Source: Escherichia phage AV118. From it: 64,000 nt of DNA. The notes under the pieces are model-generated. The model ran no database searches. It saw only the letters and a list, made by a program, of their open reading frames with translations, and was not told where the DNA came from. The stretch's first letter is position 1; each line of letters opens with the position of its first letter. The translations under genes were made by a program, and so were the position numbers. This document shows, in pieces, positions 1-13,130 of this stretch. The stretch lies in sequence record OR352948.1. One strand, given 5' to 3'.

Positions 1-325
1 TTGTGAACACATCATGGTTTTGGCAAAGACGAATATAATCCTGTTCATAAACGTCAAGAACCGAGTCCGCATCTTGTCGAATACGTCCGTAAACCCAGTT
101 ACTAATATATCCACGGTCTAACAGATAAATCTTAGTAGGGTCTAAATAATTCAACATCGTTTCGAAACAGCCAACTTCATTTCGAGACTTAACATCGAAA
201 CGTCCATCAACTGTTCGTTTAGGGAAATCAATCTTTACATATCTTTCACTAATTTCCATTATGTCATTAATGAAAGTTGTTTTACCAGCATTATCCGGTC
301 CATCTACTAAAATAATTTTAGCCAT
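1..325 (-). CDS. P-loop nucleoside/nucleotide kinase-like protein (N-terminal part; gene runs off window edge)
   Basis: Manual minus-strand translation from ATG 325..323: MAKIILVDGPDNAGKTT (Walker A) ... LLDRGYISNWVYG (DRY-like kinase motif); truncated at position 1. Confidence 0.5.
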   Translation of the reverse strand, partial: MAKIILVDGPDNAGKTTFINDIMEISERYVKIDFPKRTVDGRFDVKSRNEVGCFETMLNYLDPTKIYLLDRGYISNWVYGRIRQDADSVLDVYEQDYIRLCQNHDVFT

Positions 326-326
326 T

Positions 327-1226
327 TTATTCCTCGATTACGACATCTTCATATTTAGGTATATTATATGGTGAAGAAATTAAAGCATTAAAGTAGATGA
401 ACTCACCAAGACCTGGATGAAATACTTCTTCAGGATTTTCGAAATATTGAATCTTCGGACGTCCTTTAAGAATTTGATAGTACTCGGTTTTAGTTGGTTT
501 AAAAATTCGAATCAACGCTTCTTCAGGATACTTATTTCTGTCAAAGCTATTATTTGGATCTGTTATATAAAGCGGTTGACCTAATTGAATTGCGCATTCA
601 ACAACTTGTTCAAAACGATAGCATGGGTCACTAATTCGAAATGGATGAAAAATACCATCTAGATTAATAGGAGCCAAATCACCTACAAGACGCTGCATGA
701 TGGAAGGACGTATAACTTTCTGCGTTACGATAATCTTATTACCATCTGCACCTGCGTTAACCAGCACTTCTTTTTGACGTTCATTCAACACAGTTGTTTG
801 GATTGAACGATTAACCGACAATATGTCGGTTTTTAAGAATTCGTCAATATAAAAACGTGGTTTATTAGGGTCTGCGGTGATATTGAAATTGAATTCTACA
901 TCAAAAGCGCCGTCATATCCAGTGATATCTGTGATTAGAAAATCACAATCATAATAAGCAATTAATGAATCAACCACAAATTCATTTTCAGACCAGAAAT
1001 ATTTACGAGTGTTATACGCGTTATCTTTATACCATAATGGAACAAACTTAAATTCTGGAAAAAGACGTTCGCATTCTTTAATATCAGATGCATTACGTGG
1101 ATATGTAATCACATCACCCGGATTAGCACGGTGCAAATGAAGTTGGAAGTTGCCATCCTTAAGGATAGCATACTGTCCAGTTTCATAAGACCGCATACTC
1201 AAGATAGGTACGCGGAAAATAGCCAT
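327..1226 (-). CDS. hypothetical protein at the T4 beta-glucosyltransferase position (candidate DNA-sugar transferase, unproven)
   Basis: 299-aa ORF, ATG start overlapping gp42 stop (TAATG); no motif I can assign with confidence; possible DxD-like DCD near residue 93. Confidence 0.5.
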   Translation of the reverse strand: MAIFRVPILSMRSYETGQYAILKDGNFQLHLHRANPGDVITYPRNASDIKECERLFPEFKFVPLWYKDNAYNTRKYFWSENEFVVDSLIAYYDCDFLITDITGYDGAFDVEFNFNITADPNKPRFYIDEFLKTDILSVNRSIQTTVLNERQKEVLVNAGADGNKIIVTQKVIRPSIMQRLVGDLAPINLDGIFHPFRISDPCYRFEQVVECAIQLGQPLYITDPNNSFDRNKYPEEALIRIFKPTKTEYYQILKGRPKIQYFENPEEVFHPGLGEFIYFNALISSPYNIPKYEDVVIEE

Positions 1227-1942
1227 TAGTCAAGGAATCCTTTAACATAATCAAAATCACGTTCAAACACATGGGCACTTACCATGGTATGAGTATAATC
1301 ACCAACTTCTACACCACATTCGTTAGCGATATAATGAAGTAATTTTCCTTGGAGATAAAAATCCAACTGCATAACAACAGCACAGTTCTGAGAACGCATA
1401 TGACAGTGGGTATAAAGCTTACCATCACGAATATAATAAGTCACTGAGTCAGTACATGGATATTCAAGCGTTTCGTCTGAATCAAGCAAAGCCTGATCAG
1501 AACTTTCTAGAATTTGGAACACAACTCTTCGGGAGTTAGGCTTCTCTTTAAGTTCTTTTAGAAGAGCTGGTAATTGAGCCGCAATGCGAGGACCATAGAA
1601 AGTGTTGAAGTTCGCCGGCAAAACATCTGATTTTGGTTTAGAAATAAATTTAGCGACATTAGGATATGCCTTAAACGCTTCTTCTGCATTGGTACCACCA
1701 GAAATCATAAACTTCCAGAAGTCTTCGGCATATTCATAAGAGATGCGGTTAATACGTGGGTCGGTCATTTTGAATGTCGATGGAGTGTCAACAACTACTG
1801 TCATAGACCCAATTTCATTACAACGTCCAATACGAGAATCAGTTACGAATTCCGGGTTTTCTAAAATTTCACGATTGACTGCTTTAAATGCGGCTTGAAA
1901 ATCTGCGGCTTTGATATATTTCATTGTGTTATGTTTTCCCAT
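1226..1942 (-). CDS. 42: dCMP hydroxymethylase
   Basis: 238-aa ORF, thymidylate-synthase-like core with PCTDS catalytic-Cys region; size and position as T4 gp42; SD GAGGTAAAC before ATG. Confidence 0.8.
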   Translation of the reverse strand: MGKHNTMKYIKAADFQAAFKAVNREILENPEFVTDSRIGRCNEIGSMTVVVDTPSTFKMTDPRINRISYEYAEDFWKFMISGGTNAEEAFKAYPNVAKFISKPKSDVLPANFNTFYGPRIAAQLPALLKELKEKPNSRRVVFQILESSDQALLDSDETLEYPCTDSVTYYIRDGKLYTHCHMRSQNCAVVMQLDFYLQGKLLHYIANECGVEVGDYTHTMVSAHVFERDFDYVKGFLD

Positions 1943-2124
1943 GTTTACCTCAATACAATTTATTATATACTCAATTTGTAAAGCTTATTTGAATTTCTTG
2001 ACAATGTTGATATAACGTAAAGCTTCAGCATCGATACTTCCAAGAACACTATGAAGAAATGCGTCAGCGTAGTATTCCAATTGAACAGGTTTCTTTAATC
2101 ACTTTAGCCGCTTTAGTTTTAAAC

Positions 2125-2145
2125 AGGCCCATCAGGGCCTTTTTA
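2125..2145. terminator. GC-rich hairpin AGGCCC-ATCA-GGGCCT followed by T5 (orientation ambiguous)
   Basis: Inverted repeat plus T-run read directly; lies between gp42 and the 391-aa gene. Confidence 0.3.
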
Positions 2146-2221
2146 AGAATTTGTTCGTTAGTGTTCAGTTTAATAGTCAAAATCTCTTCGTTAAGTTTAT
2201 AATTAAAAGTTTTTCTAGAAA

Positions 2222-3397
2222 TCATTCCGGGTACCTCAAAGCGTCATCAGAGTTAGTTATATCAATAATAGATATAGAGTTTTCTGCTAACCCGTTTTTA
2301 GATAATTGACGTTTATAATATCTTTCACAATATGTACACGTCGTCCCGCAGATTTCATTAGCACAATCGAAATCTGGATGTCTGAACCACCTTTTTTCTA
2401 AAAAGCCATCTAACAAAGAGGTTTCAATATTTACTGTATGTGAAAACTCAGTTTCGTTTTCAAGAGTGAAAATGGTCTCTAAAGGCTTCCACAGTTCTAA
2501 CAAATTACCTTCAAACTTTTCAGAAGCGTATGCTTCAAGAACTTTCAAAATGTAGTCTGTGCTACCTGTACGTCCTGAAACTTTGAATTGAGTGATACCA
2601 ATATCATTATAAAGTTTCAAATCTTGAGGACGAACAAAACGAGTTCTCAACCAGTTAAATGGGTCTGTATCACGAGCTTTAATACAGTGCTGCATAGGAT
2701 ATCCGTTTAAGGATTTAGCATCATCAGCTGTAACATCAGTACTATGGAAAATATAGCAAGAGTCACGATAGCTACAATGTGTTGTATACCCTTTACCAGC
2801 ATTAGAACAGAACTCATTTACAAGAACTTCAAATATTATATTGTTCTTATTGCAAAACTCTGCTGCACGCTTCAGGAAAGAAACTGAACGGTTCTTATGA
2901 ATTCCACAGCAGACCTTTTTGATATTATATTGGTCATGCAAGTATTTGATTTGAGTTACAGCATCGACATGTAGAATTGTTGAAACTTCAATCTCAATGT
3001 CTTTATTGACTTCACGAACAATTTCCATAACAACAGGGTTAGCGATAGTAATACGCCATACGCCTATTGACCAAAGATACTGAACATAATCCTGAATAGC
3101 TTTCTTCTTCCACTCAACTAGTTCTCTTTTTGAACCAGGATTTATCGTGTTGAGTGTATAGTTAAAGCAAATACCTAATTCGTTACAACGTTTAACGTAA
3201 TCTTCTAACATCTTTTTGTCAACGTCAGGAAGCCTAAAATCAGGTCTGGCTGCTACAAAAGCCATTTCTCTTGTAGAGCCGTATACTTCGTTTATCAAGC
3301 TATTAGGATAAGTTTTATTGAGCTCTACGATTTTATCAAGAAGAGCTAAATCAAAATTCGTTCCAATTTTAAAAGTATTCATTTTTTTGCATCTCAC
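2222..3397 (-). CDS. Cys-rich protein of unknown function (weak peptidase-U32-like / Fe-S enzyme resemblance)
   Basis: 391-aa ORF; Cys cluster FCSNAGKGYTTHCSYRDSC and C-terminal CANEICGTTCTYC; start may be internal Met (MNTFKIG). Confidence 0.6.
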   Translation of the reverse strand: MRCKKMNTFKIGTNFDLALLDKIVELNKTYPNSLINEVYGSTREMAFVAARPDFRLPDVDKKMLEDYVKRCNELGICFNYTLNTINPGSKRELVEWKKKAIQDYVQYLWSIGVWRITIANPVVMEIVREVNKDIEIEVSTILHVDAVTQIKYLHDQYNIKKVCCGIHKNRSVSFLKRAAEFCNKNNIIFEVLVNEFCSNAGKGYTTHCSYRDSCYIFHSTDVTADDAKSLNGYPMQHCIKARDTDPFNWLRTRFVRPQDLKLYNDIGITQFKVSGRTGSTDYILKVLEAYASEKFEGNLLELWKPLETIFTLENETEFSHTVNIETSLLDGFLEKRWFRHPDFDCANEICGTTCTYCERYYKRQLSKNGLAENSISIIDITNSDDALRYPE

Positions 3398-3438
3398 GTT
3401 AATTGATGCGATGGTTTTTGCAGGTCTTACTTAAATTA

Positions 3439-3840
3439 TTATAGATTCGGTTTATATGATTTAAATGTTTCGAATTCGCCTTTATTCATAAGAGCTTTGA
3501 ATTCGTCAGGACGCATAGCTTTGTCGTCGATAATCCAATCATATACTGGTTTATGTGTTAGCAAATTATGGTACTTCAAACCAATGTTTTCCAAGTTCTG
3601 AATCAGACTTGGGAGAATGTCAATTGCTATACGTCCAGGACCTACTGACTTCATACCGCGAGCAGTGTAAAGCGTTATGGTATGCCCTGCATCATACAGG
3701 GCATTAATGGCAGACACCATTTCGACGTCTGGTTTGAAGTTCACGTAATCACGATTGTTATTCCACTCTGTTATACAATCATCGACATCAAAACAAAGAT
3801 TAAGCATGTTTTCTACACGGTGCATTAGATTCGTTCCCAT
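3439..3840 (-). CDS. HAD-superfamily phosphatase-like protein (putative sugar-phosphate phosphatase)
   Basis: 133-aa ORF; N-terminal FDVDDCIT (DxD motif I-like), LYTARG, HKP, IIDD motifs in HAD order. Confidence 0.55.
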   Translation of the reverse strand: MGTNLMHRVENMLNLCFDVDDCITEWNNNRDYVNFKPDVEMVSAINALYDAGHTITLYTARGMKSVGPGRIAIDILPSLIQNLENIGLKYHNLLTHKPVYDWIIDDKAMRPDEFKALMNKGEFETFKSYKPNL

Positions 3841-5510
3841 TGATGAGTGATATCGCCACCGATTGGACGATAGGAAACACCAGTTTCTTTATCAGTTAGT
3901 ACCCATTTACCAGGATTTTTTGTAATCAGAGTAGCCGTTACAGGTTCTGCTACGTCATAACTAATAGAGCCGTCTTGAAGTACACGGCCCATATTACGTA
4001 ATTGCTTAGTCAGAAGTTCCATACCTTTATAATATGCGGCTACCGCTTTAAGTGGATTATTCTTGAAATAACCACCTAATGCAATCCAGATAATTGCCAC
4101 TGCCAAATGATGATACTCGTTAAACGAACTCATCTTTCCATATTTGTAAACTAATGGATTGATGTTAATAGTCACATTACAAGTTGTTTCATCAATAGTA
4201 AACTGTCCCCAGGTCGGATTAGCATTGAATTCATCATAACCTGAAACAGCATAAAGCACTTTAGCTTCATCATACAATTTTGGCCCGTAAATCTTGGTTT
4301 CGCCAAAATATCCACGAGGGTCGATAAACTTGACTTCGCCGTTATCAGTAATCATAGTATTACTGAAGTTCGGGTCACCATGAATAACAGAGTACTGTCC
4401 CTGAGAACGGTTATGATAACGAATAAGGTGTTCTAAAGCTTGTTTCAGCATTGGCTTCAGACGTCCAATCTTAGTGTAGTTCACATGTGTGATTTTACCA
4501 AATGAATCAATCAATGGTTGAATGCTTTCACAACGATCAATAACTTTCGTATAGAATTCTTTAGTGAAATCACGACGAACAGTTTCAGGACTTACAAAAT
4601 AAGTGTCTGTGCTGAATTTCAGTGCATCTAAAATTGCATCAACAATTTGTGGACGAGCAAGACTTGATTTGGATTTAATATATTCAAATGCCGGCTTACC
4701 TTTAATGCGTTCCATTTCAAAGTTATTTTCATTAACAGAAACTAACTGAGGAACTGAATCTGATTTCACTTTCAAATACCACGAAATCTCATCTTTCTGA
4801 AGAGCTCGACCCTGTTCGGTTAATGCGAATTTAGTTACAGTTTCTTCACCAATTTCAACTGCATTAAAACTACGATTAAGTTCACGAACTTCATGAGCCT
4901 TTTCAAGTTTAGGCATATCACCAAGGTCGATGATATTCATAAGCTCTGATTTATTGAATGCGCCACTGTAAAGGAATTCTACGAAATCACGTCCTTTGCA
5001 GTATTCATGAATTTCCTCATCAGTAGAACCCATATAGAATTCCCAGTCTTTGAACTGATAAATTCCTACAACATTACCACCTGTTGAACCTACGTTAGTG
5101 ATATTTTCACCGTCGAAATTATATCGACATTCGTCACCCTTAACATAGATTGCATTAACATTCCAAGACCATGAACCAAAATCGGGAATAATATCACACC
5201 AGTTAACAATTACGTTATGGCCGTCTAAATCTTTGTGTAATTTAGCAAGAGCATAAGCAGAACCATACGCTTCATCAACTGTACGAATAGTCACATTGAA
5301 CCCTTCTTGCTCACAATAAGCTCGAACAGTTTCAGCAAATTTTGAATGAACTACTACAATAATTTCATCTGCGCCAAGGTCAGAATAAATTGTATACAAA
5401 TTGCTCAGAATAGTGTCTTGTTTATAGTTAACAAGCACCTTAGGAATATGATGCGTTATTGGATACAAACGAGTTGCCAGTCCAGCACCAAGAATAACAG
5501 CTTTTTTCAT
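3825..5510 (-). CDS. bifunctional sugar-1-phosphate nucleotidyltransferase / sugar kinase (APH-like kinase domain)
   Basis: 561 aa; N-term ILGAGLATRLYPIT..PK (GxGTRLxPxT NTase signature); C-term VIHGDPNFSN...FIDPRG (Brenner kinase motif); SD GAGGA 7 nt upstream. Confidence 0.8.
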   Translation of the reverse strand: MKKAVILGAGLATRLYPITHHIPKVLVNYKQDTILSNLYTIYSDLGADEIIVVVHSKFAETVRAYCEQEGFNVTIRTVDEAYGSAYALAKLHKDLDGHNVIVNWCDIIPDFGSWSWNVNAIYVKGDECRYNFDGENITNVGSTGGNVVGIYQFKDWEFYMGSTDEEIHEYCKGRDFVEFLYSGAFNKSELMNIIDLGDMPKLEKAHEVRELNRSFNAVEIGEETVTKFALTEQGRALQKDEISWYLKVKSDSVPQLVSVNENNFEMERIKGKPAFEYIKSKSSLARPQIVDAILDALKFSTDTYFVSPETVRRDFTKEFYTKVIDRCESIQPLIDSFGKITHVNYTKIGRLKPMLKQALEHLIRYHNRSQGQYSVIHGDPNFSNTMITDNGEVKFIDPRGYFGETKIYGPKLYDEAKVLYAVSGYDEFNANPTWGQFTIDETTCNVTININPLVYKYGKMSSFNEYHHLAVAIIWIALGGYFKNNPLKAVAAYYKGMELLTKQLRNMGRVLQDGSISYDVAEPVTATLITKNPGKWVLTDKETGVSYRPIGGDITHQWERI

Positions 5511-5551
5511 GTTGAAGTCCTCATTGGTAAGTAGGAGTATTGTACACTATT

Positions 5552-5695
5552 CTAGTTAAAGCATTCATACTTTGCTTGTAGTCCAATCATAATCCATCCA
5601 ATTACAAGTGTTGGAATCATTACCGGAGCCGTTAAGCTCCAGTAGATAGTCATGACAAGCATCAATAGTAAAAGTCCTATTGTTATTGCTTTCAT
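5552..5695 (-). CDS. small hydrophobic membrane protein (47 aa)
   Basis: Manual translation MKAITIGLLLLMLVMTIYWSLTAPVMIPTLVIGWIMIGLQAKYECFN; ATGA start/stop overlap with upstream SIS gene; below ORF-track size cutoff. Confidence 0.35.
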   Translation of the reverse strand: MKAITIGLLLLMLVMTIYWSLTAPVMIPTLVIGWIMIGLQAKYECFN

Positions 5696-6327
5696 TGTTC
5701 GCCTCGTAACATGGCACCTAGTGCACCGCCTGGATGGAACTTAAGGAAATCATTAGAGGTAAATCCACGTTCAGACGAAAGGTTGATAGCAAACGTATCG
5801 ATAAGCGCTAACAACAATGTAGTGGACATTGTCGGAGCTAAAGAGTTCTCGTCAACTTCTACCGCGATACCAGTACAGAACGTATAATCAAAAAGAGCTT
5901 CGTATTCTTGTGGAATGTCAGGGTTACAATGTAACAGAATCTGTTTAACCTGAGGACGAATCATACGAAGATGTTTAGCAACACCTATCATTTCTTCAGT
6001 CTTACCAGAACGACTGATGTGAACTAATACATCATTAGGTGCAATAAATCCTGCGTCACCATGAGAATAATGCCCAGTGTTCAAGTACATACTTGGGATA
6101 CCGAGTGAAGCAAAAGTCTCGGAAGCTTTAGTTGCGATATTAGCGTTCTTACCAACACCTGTAATAATTACCCGGCTTTCATAATTACTAAGTCCAGGGC
6201 GTCGAAGAGTTTCTAGAATAGCGTTATAACGAGCAGGGTTTTGACTAATTACTTTAGCCATAGTGGCAAGAGATGAAGCTTGTTTTACGATTGCGTCAAT
6301 AGCGATAGTGATTGGTGTAGTTTTCAT
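5692..6327 (-). CDS. SIS-domain sugar-phosphate isomerase, KdsD/GutQ-like arabinose-5-phosphate isomerase
   Basis: 211 aa; ITGVGKNANIATKASETFASLGIPS, SHGD, ISRSGKT, LAPTMSTT, HPGGALG motifs match KdsD SIS domain. Confidence 0.8.
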   Translation of the reverse strand: MKTTPITIAIDAIVKQASSLATMAKVISQNPARYNAILETLRRPGLSNYESRVIITGVGKNANIATKASETFASLGIPSMYLNTGHYSHGDAGFIAPNDVLVHISRSGKTEEMIGVAKHLRMIRPQVKQILLHCNPDIPQEYEALFDYTFCTGIAVEVDENSLAPTMSTTLLLALIDTFAINLSSERGFTSNDFLKFHPGGALGAMLRGEQ

Positions 6328-6367
6328 ATTTCTCTCATTTAATTAGTTGGCCGTCCTTGGCATTATA

Positions 6368-9079
6368 TCAAAAATCAAACATATCGAACAGAGATGCTTT
6401 CTTCTCGTAATCGAGTTTAGCTGCTGATGTGAATCCTTCAAGTGGTTTAATAAATGTCTTCTCAAGGAGAACAGTGTAGTCCATCCAATGAAGTACATCG
6501 TCTTTAATTAAATCTGTGATTTCAGTACCAGAAGGCCATGCGATACATTTATCACCGAATGGGTTTCCTTCACGTAAAGGCAGAACATATACTTTTTCAC
6601 CTTCTACAACTTGCGGTGCATCGATATTACCTTTGATAGCCCGGTTATACGTCAGAATTCCACGAATATGGAACGGGCATTTAGGACCAGGGAATCCACC
6701 GACATCATATTTAGCAATGTTATTCGCAGAAGATACCGACGCGATGCTAATATAATTCAATTGACGGAATTCTTTTTCAAACTCTTTAAAATATTCTTGT
6801 AATGATTCTTCACCTTCTTGAAGCATACGACGAATACATTCTTTAAGAGCTTTCTGTACTGCTTTAGGGGTCGAAGATTTCTGAGTCTCTAGACCCATGA
6901 TTTTGAGTTTAGGCTCAGCGTAACGAGTGCCTTCCATATCCCACACGTTTAATGCATAACGTTTCTTACCAGTCCAGAATCCACCAATACCTTTAGAACC
7001 GAGCGGAGGACCAGCGATAGCTTCTCGGTCCATGAACATTAAGTGTTGTTTATTGTTCATGTATTCACACATTTCACGGAAACCTCTATCAATAGCTGGT
7101 TCCATACGTTCACGTGCAAACTTATCTAAGAAGTCTACCCAATGGTTGGTATCACGGAATTTAGATTCACCAACCTTATCGATAATTTTATCAGCAGATA
7201 CGTAAATAGAGTCTGTATCACCATAAAGAACGAAAGCTTTACCTTCTGTACCACAAACTTCATTCAGATATTCATTAACTTTACGTTCAATCCACTGTAA
7301 AGCCATTTGCCCGAATGTTGTGATTGCAGTAGCATTACGCAAATCATAATAACGGAACCAAACGTTGCCAAGTGCACCATAAAGTGAGTTGATAAGCAAT
7401 TTACGGTTAATTTGTGCAGTCATACCTGCAACTTCAGTACGTTGAGCTCTAAACAACATTTCATTAAGAGATTTAGCAGACAACTTTTTAATCTTTTCTT
7501 TAATCTCATCACTGAAGTCGAAACGATAATCAACATCTAATGGTTCGTCAATAGAAAGATTAGGATTATGCAATGCCTCTTTAATTATTTCACCATTACG
7601 TTGAGCTGCAAGCATGTAACCTTTATGTTCTTTACGTTGATTAAAGACCTTAGTGATTTCAGTTGGAACTACACCATCACGGTCTTTATAATACATCATG
7701 CCGTTAGGAGAGCAACTGTACACATCTGAAGGACGTTCAGCGATTGCGTTAATATAATCATGCAATGGAGCTACTTTAAACGTTCCTGCTATTGTTTCCG
7801 GGCTAATATTCACTTGGCGAATAATACTTGGATACAGAGATGTAAGGTCGAAACTCATTACATATTTGTATCGATTTGGAATAGGTTCCTTAACAAAAGC
7901 GCCAGGATAAGGTTGAACCGGGTGAGAACGACCTTGTGGAATCACCTTGTTTTGTTCTTTAAGGCTATTAAAAATAATAGCATCCCAAGTTTTAATTGGA
8001 CTGAACACAGATTGAATCTGAATTTTAGCATAATAACCCATGTCCAAGCTCAAGTTGATGAACTGACGCTTAGAATCAATTTGCAATACACGATACACGT
8101 CGATAATGTTATAAGAAATATATCGTTGGTGATTGCTTTCACGAAGCTTAGAAATAGGGCCGTCATATTTCAGTTTACCAACGTTCAATTCAAATTCTGA
8201 AATGTAATCCAGAGAATACGACGGTTGATTGGTAAAAGAGAATTTTTTGTAAAGGTCAATGTAATCAAGAACAGAGATACCGAACAATGTAATGATTTCA
8301 CGAGAACCATACATGTTTTCGATAACTTTAACACGAGTTTTACGATGTGGCGATAAACGTTTCGCAGTAGATTCGCCAAAAATATTCTTGATTCGGTTAT
8401 ACACATATGGAATATCAAATGACTCAACGTTCCATCCGGTTAAAATGACAGGAGTTTTCTGTTGCCAGAAATTGAGATATTCCATCAATAATTCTTTTTC
8501 ATTATCAAACGGCATATAAACAATTTTGTCGATAATTTCGGATGGAACTTCATCACCACCTTGTTCTTGAAGCTTAGCCGCAATTTCGATAGACCATTCT
8601 TCTACATTGCCGTATGGAGAATTCAAAAGGTCAAATACGTAGAACCTGTCGTCAATTGAGTCATAATGGGTGATAGCATCAATCGGATGTTTTGCTTGTG
8701 ACGGCTCAGGGAACCCGTCCGGAGATGTTACTTCGATGTCGAAGTTAGCCACACGAATTTTTGTATGGTCGTATTTGATTTCATAGTTATAAGTGTCAGA
8801 CAAATACGCCAATTTGAAATCGTCCATGCCAAGTGCTTCAAGTCCGATATCTTCCATGCGTTTAATCCATTGGGAGGCATCACGCATATTAGCGAACAAC
8901 TTACGAGTACACGGCTTACCGTAGATATCGAAATATTTCGTAGCCTGACTTTCCGGACAATGAGCAAACAGTGATGGTTTATATTCTACTTCACGAGTAC
9001 GTTCACGGCCATTAGAATCGATGTAACGTTCAAAAATTGAATCACCAATCTGTTCAACCGTTAAGTAAAATTCTTTCAT
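6368..9079 (-). CDS. 43: DNA polymerase (family B, T4/RB69-type)
   Basis: 903-aa ORF; exonuclease FDIE, polymerase motifs DLTSLYPSII, KILINSLYG, YGDTDS; SD AAGGAAA upstream. Confidence 0.97.
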   Translation of the reverse strand: MKEFYLTVEQIGDSIFERYIDSNGRERTREVEYKPSLFAHCPESQATKYFDIYGKPCTRKLFANMRDASQWIKRMEDIGLEALGMDDFKLAYLSDTYNYEIKYDHTKIRVANFDIEVTSPDGFPEPSQAKHPIDAITHYDSIDDRFYVFDLLNSPYGNVEEWSIEIAAKLQEQGGDEVPSEIIDKIVYMPFDNEKELLMEYLNFWQQKTPVILTGWNVESFDIPYVYNRIKNIFGESTAKRLSPHRKTRVKVIENMYGSREIITLFGISVLDYIDLYKKFSFTNQPSYSLDYISEFELNVGKLKYDGPISKLRESNHQRYISYNIIDVYRVLQIDSKRQFINLSLDMGYYAKIQIQSVFSPIKTWDAIIFNSLKEQNKVIPQGRSHPVQPYPGAFVKEPIPNRYKYVMSFDLTSLYPSIIRQVNISPETIAGTFKVAPLHDYINAIAERPSDVYSCSPNGMMYYKDRDGVVPTEITKVFNQRKEHKGYMLAAQRNGEIIKEALHNPNLSIDEPLDVDYRFDFSDEIKEKIKKLSAKSLNEMLFRAQRTEVAGMTAQINRKLLINSLYGALGNVWFRYYDLRNATAITTFGQMALQWIERKVNEYLNEVCGTEGKAFVLYGDTDSIYVSADKIIDKVGESKFRDTNHWVDFLDKFARERMEPAIDRGFREMCEYMNNKQHLMFMDREAIAGPPLGSKGIGGFWTGKKRYALNVWDMEGTRYAEPKLKIMGLETQKSSTPKAVQKALKECIRRMLQEGEESLQEYFKEFEKEFRQLNYISIASVSSANNIAKYDVGGFPGPKCPFHIRGILTYNRAIKGNIDAPQVVEGEKVYVLPLREGNPFGDKCIAWPSGTEITDLIKDDVLHWMDYTVLLEKTFIKPLEGFTSAAKLDYEKKASLFDMFDF

Positions 9080-9137
9080 TTAATTTCCTTTAGACGAGTT
9101 ATTGTCTTTTGTTTGTTGATGAACTTATTATACTCCA

Positions 9138-9157
9138 AATGGGACCGAAGTCCCATT
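9138..9157 (-). promoter_or_regulatory. stable hairpin (8-bp stem, UUCG loop on mRNA) upstream of gene 43; candidate translational operator/RNA element
   Basis: AATGGGAC-CGAA-GTCCCATT inverted repeat in regA-43 intergenic region. Confidence 0.35.
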
Positions 9158-9160
9158 GCT

Positions 9161-9529
9161 TTAATTACCAATTGTATATTTTGCTTTCAAAGTCCAGTCA
9201 TCTTTCTGTTTAAAAGAGATAACACGGAAGTTATTAGTAAGGCCAAATAGATCTTCACGAGCAGAGTCTTCAATAACAATCAATCCCCAGTCTTCAAGCA
9301 ACTGGGCAATCGAATCACGTCGCTGATAGTCTTCACCGTCAATATCAACCTGACGTCCATCCATACGCAGCATTTCTTTAAAGTGGACGATGTAGTATTT
9401 ACCTTGCTTTTGGAGGATATGACAGGACTGATAAAGGACTTTATCCTTGTTATTAGCGATGCCCATACGGGTCAGAGTCTCTTTGACTTTCAGAAAATCT
9501 TCAGGGTTCTTCAATTTAATTTCAATCAT
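9161..9529 (-). CDS. regA: translational repressor RegA
   Basis: 122 aa from ATG 9529 (MIEIKLK...); sequence and position between gp62 and gp43 as in T4. Confidence 0.9.
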   Translation of the reverse strand: MIEIKLKNPEDFLKVKETLTRMGIANNKDKVLYQSCHILQKQGKYYIVHFKEMLRMDGRQVDIDGEDYQRRDSIAQLLEDWGLIVIEDSAREDLFGLTNNFRVISFKQKDDWTLKAKYTIGN

Positions 9530-11134: not shown

Positions 11135-11821
11135 TTAGAAGTCGTGAGTAGAATCGGCTTCCATCGCAATAACATAACTTACTTGAGAGCTTTCAAACTT
11201 GGCTGCAACTTTATCACCAGCTCCCCACAACATTACTTTATAGTTACCTGGCTGGATTTTCATATTAGCCATATTGATTACGAAGTTAAAGTTGTTAGAA
11301 CCATCATAATCGGTAAGAGTCAAAGAATACTTAGGACGAGTTAGTCCTGAATCTTCAACTTTATTATAGCCATTGATAACAATTTTACCATCTTTATTTG
11401 TAATAGCAATTGTATCAATCTGAAGACCACGTGAAACTCGAAGCAATTGTTGAAGGTCTTCAGCTTTAATTTCAGTAATCACAGAAGCTACTGGGAATTG
11501 AATTGGCTTATTAGGAAAAACAATTGTGCTCTTGTCAGCGGCAGGCCAATAAACTGTGGAACGTGTATCTGCAATTTTAATATTGCCATCAGTGTGCATT
11601 GAAATTTCAGCATCATCAGACACTAGACTCAAAATGCTTAAGAAGCTATTCAAATCATAAAGTGCTACGTCAAAATCAATTTCATCAGAGATATTTGCTT
11701 CCGCATAAGTGGTGCCATTAACTGCACGAGTCATAATAAATTTACCTTGACTCAGCAGAATGCCAGAGTTAATAGAAGCGAAGTTTTTCAGAATATTTAC
11801 GGTTTCACGGCTAAGTTTCAT
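11135..11821 (-). CDS. 45: sliding clamp
   Basis: 228-aa ORF; sequence and size match T4 gp45. Confidence 0.95.
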   Translation of the reverse strand: MKLSRETVNILKNFASINSGILLSQGKFIMTRAVNGTTYAEANISDEIDFDVALYDLNSFLSILSLVSDDAEISMHTDGNIKIADTRSTVYWPAADKSTIVFPNKPIQFPVASVITEIKAEDLQQLLRVSRGLQIDTIAITNKDGKIVINGYNKVEDSGLTRPKYSLTLTDYDGSNNFNFVINMANMKIQPGNYKVMLWGAGDKVAAKFESSQVSYVIAMEADSTHDF

Positions 11822-12708
11822 TTAGGTTTCCTATTAGCATAATAATTTGTCCAAGACCGGATAGCACCTTGGTATGATTCATCATTAAAACCATGCTGAA
11901 TTGCATGTTTTCTAAATGTAATATAACTTGGTTTTCCTAAAGCAATCCACAATTCCTTTAATTTTTGTTCATGAAATATCCATGTACCTCTAGCTTTAGA
12001 TTTTCTGAATTTATCCTTAAATTCTTTGGTTGCATTTCTTTTCGAAGCTGCGATAGAGGCCTTTGCTCTATTTTCAGGTTTAGACCAATACAATGTTTTA
12101 GATATTTTTATTTTATCTTTAACATTAGGAGAATTCATTATATCTTTAAATTTTAAAGCAAAATCTCTATCGCTAAACATTTTTTTAGAAAGAATAGAAA
12201 CTTTCTCTCTTCGTTCTTTGGTCCAATATGTTTTTTGAAATTCTCTAATTGCGTTTAAATGATTCTCCGACAATTTGCAATTTTTTCTAACACCGACGTA
12301 ATCTTCGTTTATTTCGTTTTTAGAAAGTTTTACTATTTTGCCTGTTTTTAAATTTTTATACGGTGCATATCCTTTAGCTGATATTCTAGACTTCTCGTTA
12401 GCATAAGCCTTATTAAAATATTTTTCATTTGAAACGGCTTTAACATTGAGTTGGAATAGTCTTTCTATTCTTCTAGGGTCTAATGTGGTTTCGCCTAAAA
12501 TTTTTACAGAATATTCGCCTTGGTCTATTAATCTGGTATATAAAGGAGAATACGAGGAATTAACACTACCGGTATATATTTTACCGGTAGAATCTTCAAT
12601 AATATCCTTTCCATTAAAATGACACGAAACTTTAGAACCTATATAATAACACGGGTATTCATTTTTAATCTCACGATTATAAAAGGTTATAAGATATATT
12701 AAATTCAT
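11818..12708 (-). mobile_element. GIY-YIG homing endonuclease gene (Seg-like), free-standing between rpbA and gene 45
   Basis: 296 aa from ATG 12708; N-term LIYLITF...YYIGSK; basic HTH-like C-terminus; paralogous to ORFs at 16570 and 23522. Confidence 0.6.
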
Positions 12709-12713
12709 AATTA

Positions 12714-13130
12714 TCAAGCAGCAACCATCTGCTTTTTAATAGTTTCAGGCAGTGATTCAATATATTCTGGAATTTTAGAAGCAACAATTTCGCCAGCTGC
12801 AATTAGTTGTTCGTCGGCATCAACACAGTAGGAATCTTCCAGACGCTCAGAACCGTCTTTATCAAGAACGATTTTTGCGCCAGCTTCAATAGAATCGTTA
12901 TAGTGCTTACGCATCAGATGAATCCACATATCAGATACATCGTTATCAATAAAACCATAAATCATAAAACGAGTTTCTTGTGGCAAAGATTGGAGTTTTT
13001 TAGCACTTGCGTCATCACAATGCAGGACCCATGCTTTACGAACACGATTATGGTTATGTGGGTTAGCGTCAGTACGGATAGAAGTAACTTTCAGATCAGC
13101 AGCAGTGAAACCTTTAGCAGTAGTAAACAT
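12714..13130 (-). CDS. rpbA: RNA polymerase-binding protein RpbA (by synteny)
   Basis: 138-aa ORF between gp46/45.2 and gp45 region; start uncertain. Confidence 0.5.
   Translation of the reverse strand: MFTTAKGFTAADLKVTSIRTDANPHNHNRVRKAWVLHCDDASAKKLQSLPQETRFMIYGFIDNDVSDMWIHLMRKHYNDSIEAGAKIVLDKDGSERLEDSYCVDADEQLIAAGEIVASKIPEYIESLPETIKKQMVAA

Follow-up and report, generated by a model that had tools for sequence, protein, structure and literature searches.

RB69-like phages need uridine diphosphate (UDP)-D-arabinofuranose, an unusual sugar nucleotide that E. coli does not make, to arabinosylate every cytosine of their DNA, and this arabinosylation influences whether they resist, or are sensitive to, restriction enzymes, CRISPR and type IV systems; it is also relevant to phage therapy and engineering. 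The closest described counterparts of the gene considered here are gp52:53 (ORF53_52c) of RB69 and AfhE of phage HY126. Thomas et al. (2018) recognised that RB69 ORF053c and ORF052c are a single 561-amino-acid gene, expressed it, and proposed the fusion protein together with the SIS-domain protein ORF055c as generators of UDP-arabinose (PMC6024577). Lee et al. (NAR 2026) described mono- and di-arabinosylated 5-hydroxycytosine in RB69 DNA, the synthesis of 5-hydroxy-dCMP by the thymidylate synthase homologue gp48, and a model of gp52:53 as a nucleotidyltransferase plus a kinase, and equated gp52:53 with AfhE (PMC13326640). According to the passages of PMC13326640 that summarise He et al. (Nat Chem Biol 2026), AfhE is a bifunctional D-arabinose-5-phosphate kinase/UDP-D-arabinose pyrophosphorylase that phosphorylates C1 of D-arabinose-5-phosphate (Ara5P), giving arabinofuranose-1,5-bisphosphate (Araf-1,5-P2); the same passages describe AfhF as a Mg2+-dependent phosphatase converting Araf-1,5-P2 to arabinofuranose-1-phosphate (Araf-1-P) (He et al./Mahler et al.) and mention that the structure of the HY126 hydroxylase with flavin was solved by He et al. 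In phage NP, another Mosigvirus, 5-ara-dC and 5-ara-ara-dC were shown independently, and the Thanatos homologue TH1_060 is essential for phage propagation and gave no activity with xylose-1-phosphate. Here we describe the counterpart in Escherichia phage AV118, a gene at 3825..5510 on the minus strand of a 64,000-nucleotide stretch of record OR352948.1 (the window), whose product very probably helps to supply UDP-D-arabinofuranose. The enzyme is thus one that is already known, predicted in 2018 (Thomas et al., PMC6024577) and characterised in 2025–2026 for the counterpart from a near-identical phage.

A genuine kinase–nucleotidyltransferase fusion

The fusion gene is one open reading frame (ORF) of 561 codons that begins with ATG, the coordinates taking in the stop codon, and a Shine-Dalgarno-like GAGGA lies about 8 nucleotides 5′ of its start. 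Over 1686 nucleotides it shares 98.6–99.1% identity with the Mosigvirus genomes listed, and it is present at 95% nucleotide identity or more in 153 phage records, among them Bas46 (about 99%), where it is annotated as a ‘putative enzyme involved in UDP-arabinose biosynthesis’. Nearby ORFs are replication genes of the T4 type (gp43 DNA polymerase, RegA, the gp62/44 clamp loader and gp45), and the phage is a Mosigvirus, an RB69-like T-even phage. At the protein level, identity amounts to 100% with vB_EcoM_G2285, 99.1% over 561 amino acids with RB69 ORF53_52c, 73% with Serratia phage X20, 56% with Acinetobacter DLP-type phages and 54% with Thanatos TH1_060. The protein matches PHROG 4098 over positions 1–561 (E = 1e-294), and this full-length homology across both domains places it in the AfhE/RB69 gp52:53 family. 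Of 50,697 phage records, 373 contain a homologue; they comprise Straboviridae of many hosts and some unrelated phages, a spread that contradicts an earlier note on this sequence, which had called such a fusion unusual in a phage.

The same note, made from the sequence alone, had read the protein as a sugar nucleotidyltransferase fused to an APH/choline-kinase-like kinase, and this reading is borne out by Pfam, a kinase profile, AlphaFold2 and Foldseek, so that a genuine two-domain fusion is confirmed. An N-terminal sugar-1-phosphate nucleotidyltransferase domain (residues ~1–205; 4896..5510, minus strand) is followed by a C-terminal APH/choline-kinase-like domain of the eukaryotic-like kinase fold (residues ~210–507; 3990..4883, minus strand) and by a tail of about 54 amino acids (residues 508–561; 3825..3989, minus strand) found in a T4-like phage subgroup only. 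Domain-wise profile searches and structure prediction, both suggested in the earlier note as checks, agree on this layout and give matches well beyond chance. Pfam NTP_transferase covers residues 3–99 with a score over the gathering score (E = 8.4e-10). A single-sequence phmmer search against the PDB returned nucleotidyltransferase matches only and no kinase; a profile built from the kinase half then found APH(2'')-IIa (E = 1.6e-7), in an alignment that brings the VxK, HGD and IDP motifs into register. Sub-threshold Pfam kinase matches near residues 344–409 (Fructosamin_kin, EcKL and RIO1) were not used alone as evidence. The AlphaFold2 model computed from the alignment is confident, with a predicted local distance difference test (pLDDT) score of 92 and a predicted template-modelling score (pTM) of 0.88, and Foldseek assigned each half with a probability of 1.00.

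The catalytic motifs are preserved in both halves. Positions 5454-5489 (minus strand) translate to GAGLATRLYPIT, a near-match to the GxGTRLxPxT pattern that had been read from the sequence before; it departs from the canonical form at position 12, where Ala takes the place of the Gly found in canonical enzymes such as LicC (AAGLGTRL). The kinase motif HGDxxxxN...D, by contrast, is exact: positions 4320-4382 (minus strand) translate to HGDPNFSNTMITDNGEVKFID, corresponding to H377-G-D379-x4-N384...D397 (HGDPNFSN-x12-D). From 317 homologues gathered, 30 covering 29–73% identity were aligned. Invariant columns of the nucleotidyltransferase half include G10, R14, L15, K24, D106, D195, G197, D198 and K201, in which we recognise, by sequence, the signature and acidic positions of RmlA/LicC-type enzymes, and position 12 is A, G or S across the family. 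In the kinase half, K227, E241, H377-G-D379, N384 and D397-P-R-G are invariant, which by the same comparison is the full Lys/Glu/catalytic-loop/Mg-Asp set of APH-type kinases; R213, R326, R399, K417 and K488 are further invariant Arg/Lys residues there. With its catalytic residues invariant in the 30 homologues, neither domain is the degenerate, non-catalytic copy that the earlier note had named as a possible refutation. The N-terminal half therefore belongs to the sugar-1-phosphate nucleotidyltransferase superfamily (PF00483, RmlA/GalU/LicC/MurU fold) by profile, G-x-G-x-x-(T/S)-R-L...PK signature and acidic ligands, and the C-terminal half to the APH/choline-kinase/eukaryotic-like kinase superfamily by its bilobal fold, beta3 Lys, alphaC Glu, HxDxxxxN loop and Mg-binding Asp.

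Closer family assignments failed. GlmU was rejected on scores (TIGR01173, 22 bits against a cut-off of 366.85; PRK14353, 22.7 against 505) and also on architecture, the C-terminal half being a kinase fold without the left-handed beta-helix acetyltransferase domain. MurU was rejected likewise, its NCBIfam models reaching 20–25 bits against cut-offs of 250–370, and the protein does not belong to HldE, with no PfkB or CTP_transf_like match in Pfam or NCBIfam and different folds. No curated NCBIfam model came near its own cut-off for the fusion protein, and the ‘GlmU’ labels found in GenBank are therefore wrong. A PDB search found no solved structure for the fusion, the glycosyltransferase or the U32-like protein discussed below.

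Public annotation of the fusion protein lags behind the literature. The exact sequence is deposited as QBO62479.1/QZI79976.1 under the name ‘hypothetical protein’; other records name near-identical copies ‘bifunctional protein GlmU’, ‘nucleotidyltransferase’ or ‘capsule biosynthesis protein’; the last of these labels was considered and rejected. In the RB69 reference record the gene is still split into ORF052c and ORF053c because of a sequencing error.

A proposed route from ribulose-5-phosphate

We propose, with high confidence, that the fusion is the Mosigvirus counterpart of AfhE and is bifunctional in a pathway leading from host ribulose-5-phosphate to UDP-D-arabinofuranose (UDP-Araf), in which (i) the SIS isomerase (5692..6327) would convert ribulose-5-phosphate to Ara5P; (ii) the APH-like kinase domain, in a proposed ATP-dependent reaction with D-arabinofuranose-5-phosphate as substrate, would phosphorylate the anomeric C1 hydroxyl to give Araf-1,5-P2; (iii) the HAD phosphatase (3439..3840) would strip the 5-phosphate, leaving Araf-1-P; (iv) the N-terminal nucleotidyltransferase domain would join Araf-1-P and uridine triphosphate (UTP) to give UDP-Araf and pyrophosphate; and (v) glycosyltransferases including that encoded at 327..1226 would transfer arabinose from UDP-Araf onto 5-hydroxycytosine of the phage DNA, a modification that blocks host restriction enzymes. 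Domain identities, conservation of catalytic residues, gene linkage and Rosetta-stone fusions come from the present analysis, while the substrates, the step order and the UDP specificity are taken second-hand from the literature as relayed by PMC13326640. According to this scheme the two activities of the fusion are not consecutive, because the separate phosphatase (AfhF) removes the 5-phosphate before the nucleotidyltransferase step. From carbohydrate chemistry, a start from the 5-phosphate would block O5, and therefore only the furanose ring could close; the phosphate on C1 would then lock the furanose, which would explain both the bisphosphate route and why a pyranose/furanose mutase could be dispensed with.

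The link to HY126 rests on the neighbouring proteins. The phosphatase differs by one residue over 129 aligned from PDB 9iqw (134 amino acids; E = 4e-87), and the thymidylate synthase homologue is about 97% identical over 238 amino acids to 9iqc/9ir2/9iqu. Since these four identifiers are adjacent and the HY126 hydroxylase was solved, they are very likely HY126 proteins, and HY126 and AV118 are probably very closely related. By these matches, the fusion would be an orthologue of AfhE at an identity similar to that of its neighbours, 97–99%. HY126 AfhE, RB69 gp52:53 and DLP3 gp82 share with it the 561-amino-acid two-domain architecture and the place between SIS isomerase and HAD phosphatase, next to the gp43 DNA polymerase; no substantive difference sets it apart from them, and the copy here is another Mosigvirus allele.

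The logic of the route is that of ADP-heptose synthesis, in which GmhA (an SIS isomerase), the bifunctional kinase/adenylyltransferase HldE and GmhB (a HAD phosphatase) lead from a ketose-phosphate to an aldose-phosphate and a C1 bisphosphate, whose distal phosphate is removed before nucleotidylylation. There one bifunctional protein catalyses two non-consecutive steps with SIS and HAD partners, and the phage fusion would do likewise; here, however, the sugar would be a pentofuranose and the nucleotide UDP. In HldE a ribokinase/PfkB-type kinase is joined to a cytidylyltransferase-type (HIGH-motif) adenylyltransferase, whereas the phage fusion combines, in the order nucleotidyltransferase–kinase, an RmlA/LicC-type nucleotidyltransferase with an APH/eukaryotic-like-fold kinase. 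The folds are unrelated, and the similarity is therefore convergent, not homologous.

The fucokinase/GDP-fucose pyrophosphorylase (FKP) and the trypanosomatid arabinokinase/pyrophosphorylase also carry a kinase and a nucleoside diphosphate (NDP)-sugar pyrophosphorylase on one chain, some of them acting on D-arabinose. Both types have a GHMP-fold kinase, free pyranose substrates, GDP as nucleotide and a salvage function. Of the FKP likeness drawn in the earlier note, the architecture thus stands; the kinship of the kinases does not, given what is generally known of the GHMP fold, and none of the fold-search matches listed was an FKP-like structure. AmgK/MurU (salvage of N-acetylmuramic acid) and LicA/LicC (phosphocholine activation) are separate proteins that carry out consecutive salvage steps on unphosphorylated substrates; in the phage, going by the relevant text of PMC13326640, the activities sit on one chain, the kinase acts on a sugar that already bears a 5-phosphate, and a phosphatase step stands between them.

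Two other explanations of the fusion have to be weighed. The HAD phosphatase could make free D-arabinose from Ara5P, which the kinase would convert to Ara-1-P and the nucleotidyltransferase would then activate, the two activities being consecutive as in AmgK/MurU. This is in essence the salvage-type framing of the earlier note, and Table 1 of PMC13326640 gives it some footing by listing ‘dephosphorylates Araf5p to Ara’ and ‘phosphorylates Ara to Araf1p’. Fusions also more usually join consecutive activities, and such a route would need the same four domains, so that the Rosetta-stone fusions and the gene linkage are compatible with either. We nevertheless regard it as improbable. In the text of PMC13326640 that reports the HY126 biochemistry, AfhE converts Araf5P to Araf-1,5-P2 and AfhF dephosphorylates the bisphosphate; free D-arabinose in solution is mainly pyranose (general chemistry), as opposed to the furanose product NDP-Araf (PMC13326640); and relatives of the phosphatase include heptose-1,7-bisphosphate 7-phosphatase-like HADs (PMC13326640). 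As far as the published HY126 biochemistry is conveyed there, the pathway is one of de novo synthesis from ribulose-5-phosphate, not salvage. Of the earlier expectation that an activated sugar would be made from free sugar in two steps, the activated pentose, arabinose, is retained, whereas the free sugar and the consecutive steps give way to a route that starts from a phospho-sugar and passes through a bisphosphate, a phosphatase acting between the two activities.

It is more improbable still that the enzyme acts on another sugar or nucleotide (a CDP- or GDP-pentose, or a phospho-alcohol as in LicA/LicC) or that one domain is a dead scaffold. The failure of every curated family model to reach its cut-off, the inactivity of TH1_060 in the sole assay tried and the Ala at motif position 12 could be read in this way. 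The DNA of RB69 and Mosigvirus contains arabinose, however, with no other phage-specific sugar reported; the fusion gene is linked to an arabinose-5-phosphate isomerase homologue; and the structural relatives of the phage glycosyltransferases use UDP-sugars (PMC13326640). Across the 30 sequences, whose identity falls as low as 29%, both domains keep all their catalytic-type residues unchanged, which speaks against a dead domain, and position 12 varies family-wide between A, G and S while G10, R14 and K24 are fixed. For the proposed bisphosphate route itself, several points count on the other side of the balance. The identification with AfhE comes from the PDB matches of neighbouring proteins and not from the HY126 AfhE sequence, and the step order and UDP specificity come from a secondary summary, PMC13326640. 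That paper is inconsistent, its Table 1 giving Ara5P -> free Ara -> Ara1P and its text the bisphosphate route. The evidence computed here does not tell whether the kinase uses Ara5P or free arabinose, and the substrate is not assignable by family membership because no curated NCBIfam model reaches its cut-off.

Neighbouring genes and their conserved linkage

The isomerase, the phosphatase, the thymidylate synthase homologue and a DNA glycosyltransferase share the minus strand with the fusion gene between 327 and 6327. The order SIS, fusion, HAD, thymidylate synthase homologue and glycosyltransferase is conserved in Bas46 and JS98, and in Thanatos the fusion, thymidylate synthase homologue and glycosyltransferase-like genes are adjacent. 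A scan of 1..9500 for sigma-70 promoters and terminators found as many of each as expected from shuffled sequence (32 versus 35.6 and 5 versus 5.2, respectively).

The HAD-type phosphatase gene (3439..3840, minus strand; RB69 gp51/AfhF counterpart), proposed to act on Araf-1,5-P2, lies directly downstream of the fusion gene, and its ATG overlaps the last 16 nucleotides of the latter. Its product matches NCBIfam TIGR01689 (EcbF/BcbF phosphatase-like; E = 1.9e-13) and shows a DVDD motif; in public records the gene is often labelled ‘phosphoheptose isomerase’. The putative arabinose-5-phosphate isomerase (5692..6327, minus strand; RB69 gp55 counterpart) is a KdsD/GutQ-like SIS-domain protein without CBS domains. 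It matches Pfam SIS (E = 8e-10), NCBIfam KpsF/GutQ (E = 8.8e-32) and KdsD (E = 3.8e-30), the latter two under their cut-offs, as well as PDB entries 3etn (E = 1e-24) and 2xhz, and it belongs to PHROG 5670, ‘arabinose 5-phosphate isomerase’. The thymidylate synthase homologue (1226..1942, minus strand; Pfam Thymidylat_synt) would provide the acceptor base, acting as 5-hydroxy-dCMP synthase. The proposed consumer of UDP-arabinose is the GT-B-like DNA arabinosyltransferase 1 (327..1226, minus strand; RB69 gp46:47 counterpart), which falls in PHROG 3891 and is assigned through Table 1 of PMC13326640; it had neither a Pfam match nor a PDB sequence match.

Between the isomerase and the fusion gene lies a strongly hydrophobic 47-amino-acid ORF (MKAITIGLLLLMLVMTIYWSLTAPVMIPTLVIGWIMIGLQAKYECFN; 5552..5695, minus strand), whose ATG overlaps the isomerase stop codon (ATGA). 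In Bas46 it corresponds to bas46_0147, annotated as hypothetical, and a similar RB69 gene is named orf054c in the JS98 record. Its product is likely a small membrane protein encoded in the sugar-nucleotide operon.

Distant relatives and accompanying genes

Relatives of the fusion extend beyond the T4-like phages. Single polypeptides of 890–955 amino acids with the order HAD-SIS-nucleotidyltransferase-kinase were found in P0084 (926 amino acids; contig L002, 8001-10781), P0091, which comes from a eukaryote transcriptome, and P0093; another HAD-containing form, P0119, has 892 amino acids (L008/L009, 7001-9679), and P0107 (L010, 7001-9361) is a nucleotidyltransferase-kinase of 786 amino acids with a weak C-terminal match to mannose-6-phosphate isomerase (cupin-type). 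Contig L002 carries the hallmarks RNA polymerase Rpb2, RNA_pol_N and MutS-HNH, other giant-virus-like contigs carry PIF1 or DSHCT helicases, a RING finger and dUTPase, the architectures encoded on such contigs include HAD-nucleotidyltransferase-kinase, and some of the multi-domain relatives adjoin genes for GT2 glycosyltransferases and NDP-sugar epimerases/dehydratases. These contexts suggest a possible role of the multi-domain relatives in NDP-pentose synthesis for eukaryotic-virus glycans. Our literature search on giant viruses and a UDP-arabinose pathway found only the generic annotation ‘arabinose 5-phosphate isomerase’ in TetV-1.

The C-terminal tail of the T4-like forms (residues 508–561) is modelled with a pLDDT of 73–86 and short strands, and has no family match. 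It is found down to about 36% identity (P0077), is absent from P0082 onward and from the multi-domain forms, and has the conserved pattern T(K/R)xPxKWxLxDxE...Y...W. We tentatively hypothesise, as a speculation that we consider rather doubtful, that the module reaches beyond phage DNA modification to the giant-virus-like contigs and that the T4-like tail could dock the phosphatase or isomerase and so channel the bisphosphate. If this were true, eukaryotic viruses would use the same bisphosphate logic to furnish their virion glycans with an NDP-pentofuranose or a related sugar.

Tenacibaculum phage PTm5, a Shirahamavirus outside the Straboviridae, encodes a relative of the fusion that is 27.5% identical. 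There the gene is followed by one for a histidine phosphatase (His_Phos_1, E = 9e-23; L006, 6571-7275), which replaces the HAD phosphatase, and then by a thymidylate synthase homologue; the phosphatase partner is therefore kept though its fold is swapped, in what looks, from the gene order, like non-orthologous displacement of the phosphatase step. The predicted gene set implies cytosine or pyrimidine glycosylation in Shirahamavirus.

In AV118, a gene for a Peptidase-U32-family protein of 391 amino acids (2222..3397, minus strand; RB69 gp50 counterpart; Pfam Peptidase_U32, E = 7.5e-11) lies between those of the phosphatase and the 5-hydroxy-dCMP synthase. It shows a weak match to UbiU (NCBIfam) and has the cysteine clusters FCS-x8-HCSYRDSC...HC and, C-terminally, Cx5Cx3Cx2C. 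The protein occurs at 80% identity or more in 221 phage records and is unusually conserved, with 82% identity between E. coli and Shewanella phages as compared with 54% for the fusion protein; inspection of the JS98 and PTm5 neighbourhoods did not reveal the gene, and its listed matches include no Acinetobacter phage. Among the members of the U32 family are RlhA (ho5C2501 of 23S rRNA), TrhP (ho5U34 of tRNA) and the O2-independent Fe-S hydroxylases UbiU/UbiV. The phage protein is a candidate O2-independent hydroxylation factor in a phage that uses an O2/flavin-dependent enzyme for 5-hydroxycytosine. Our search found no literature linking the U32 phage protein with hydroxylation, and Lee et al. 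list RB69 gp50 as ‘sugar or heterocycle reductase’ (PMC13326640).

Further upstream, a 299-amino-acid ORF (11818..12717, minus strand) separates the gp45 sliding-clamp gene from the genes upstream of it. Its N-terminus, NLIYLITFYNREIKNEYPCYYIGSK, resembles a GIY-YIG homing-endonuclease (Seg-like) motif, and the ORF is possibly a mobile element inserted into the block of replication genes.

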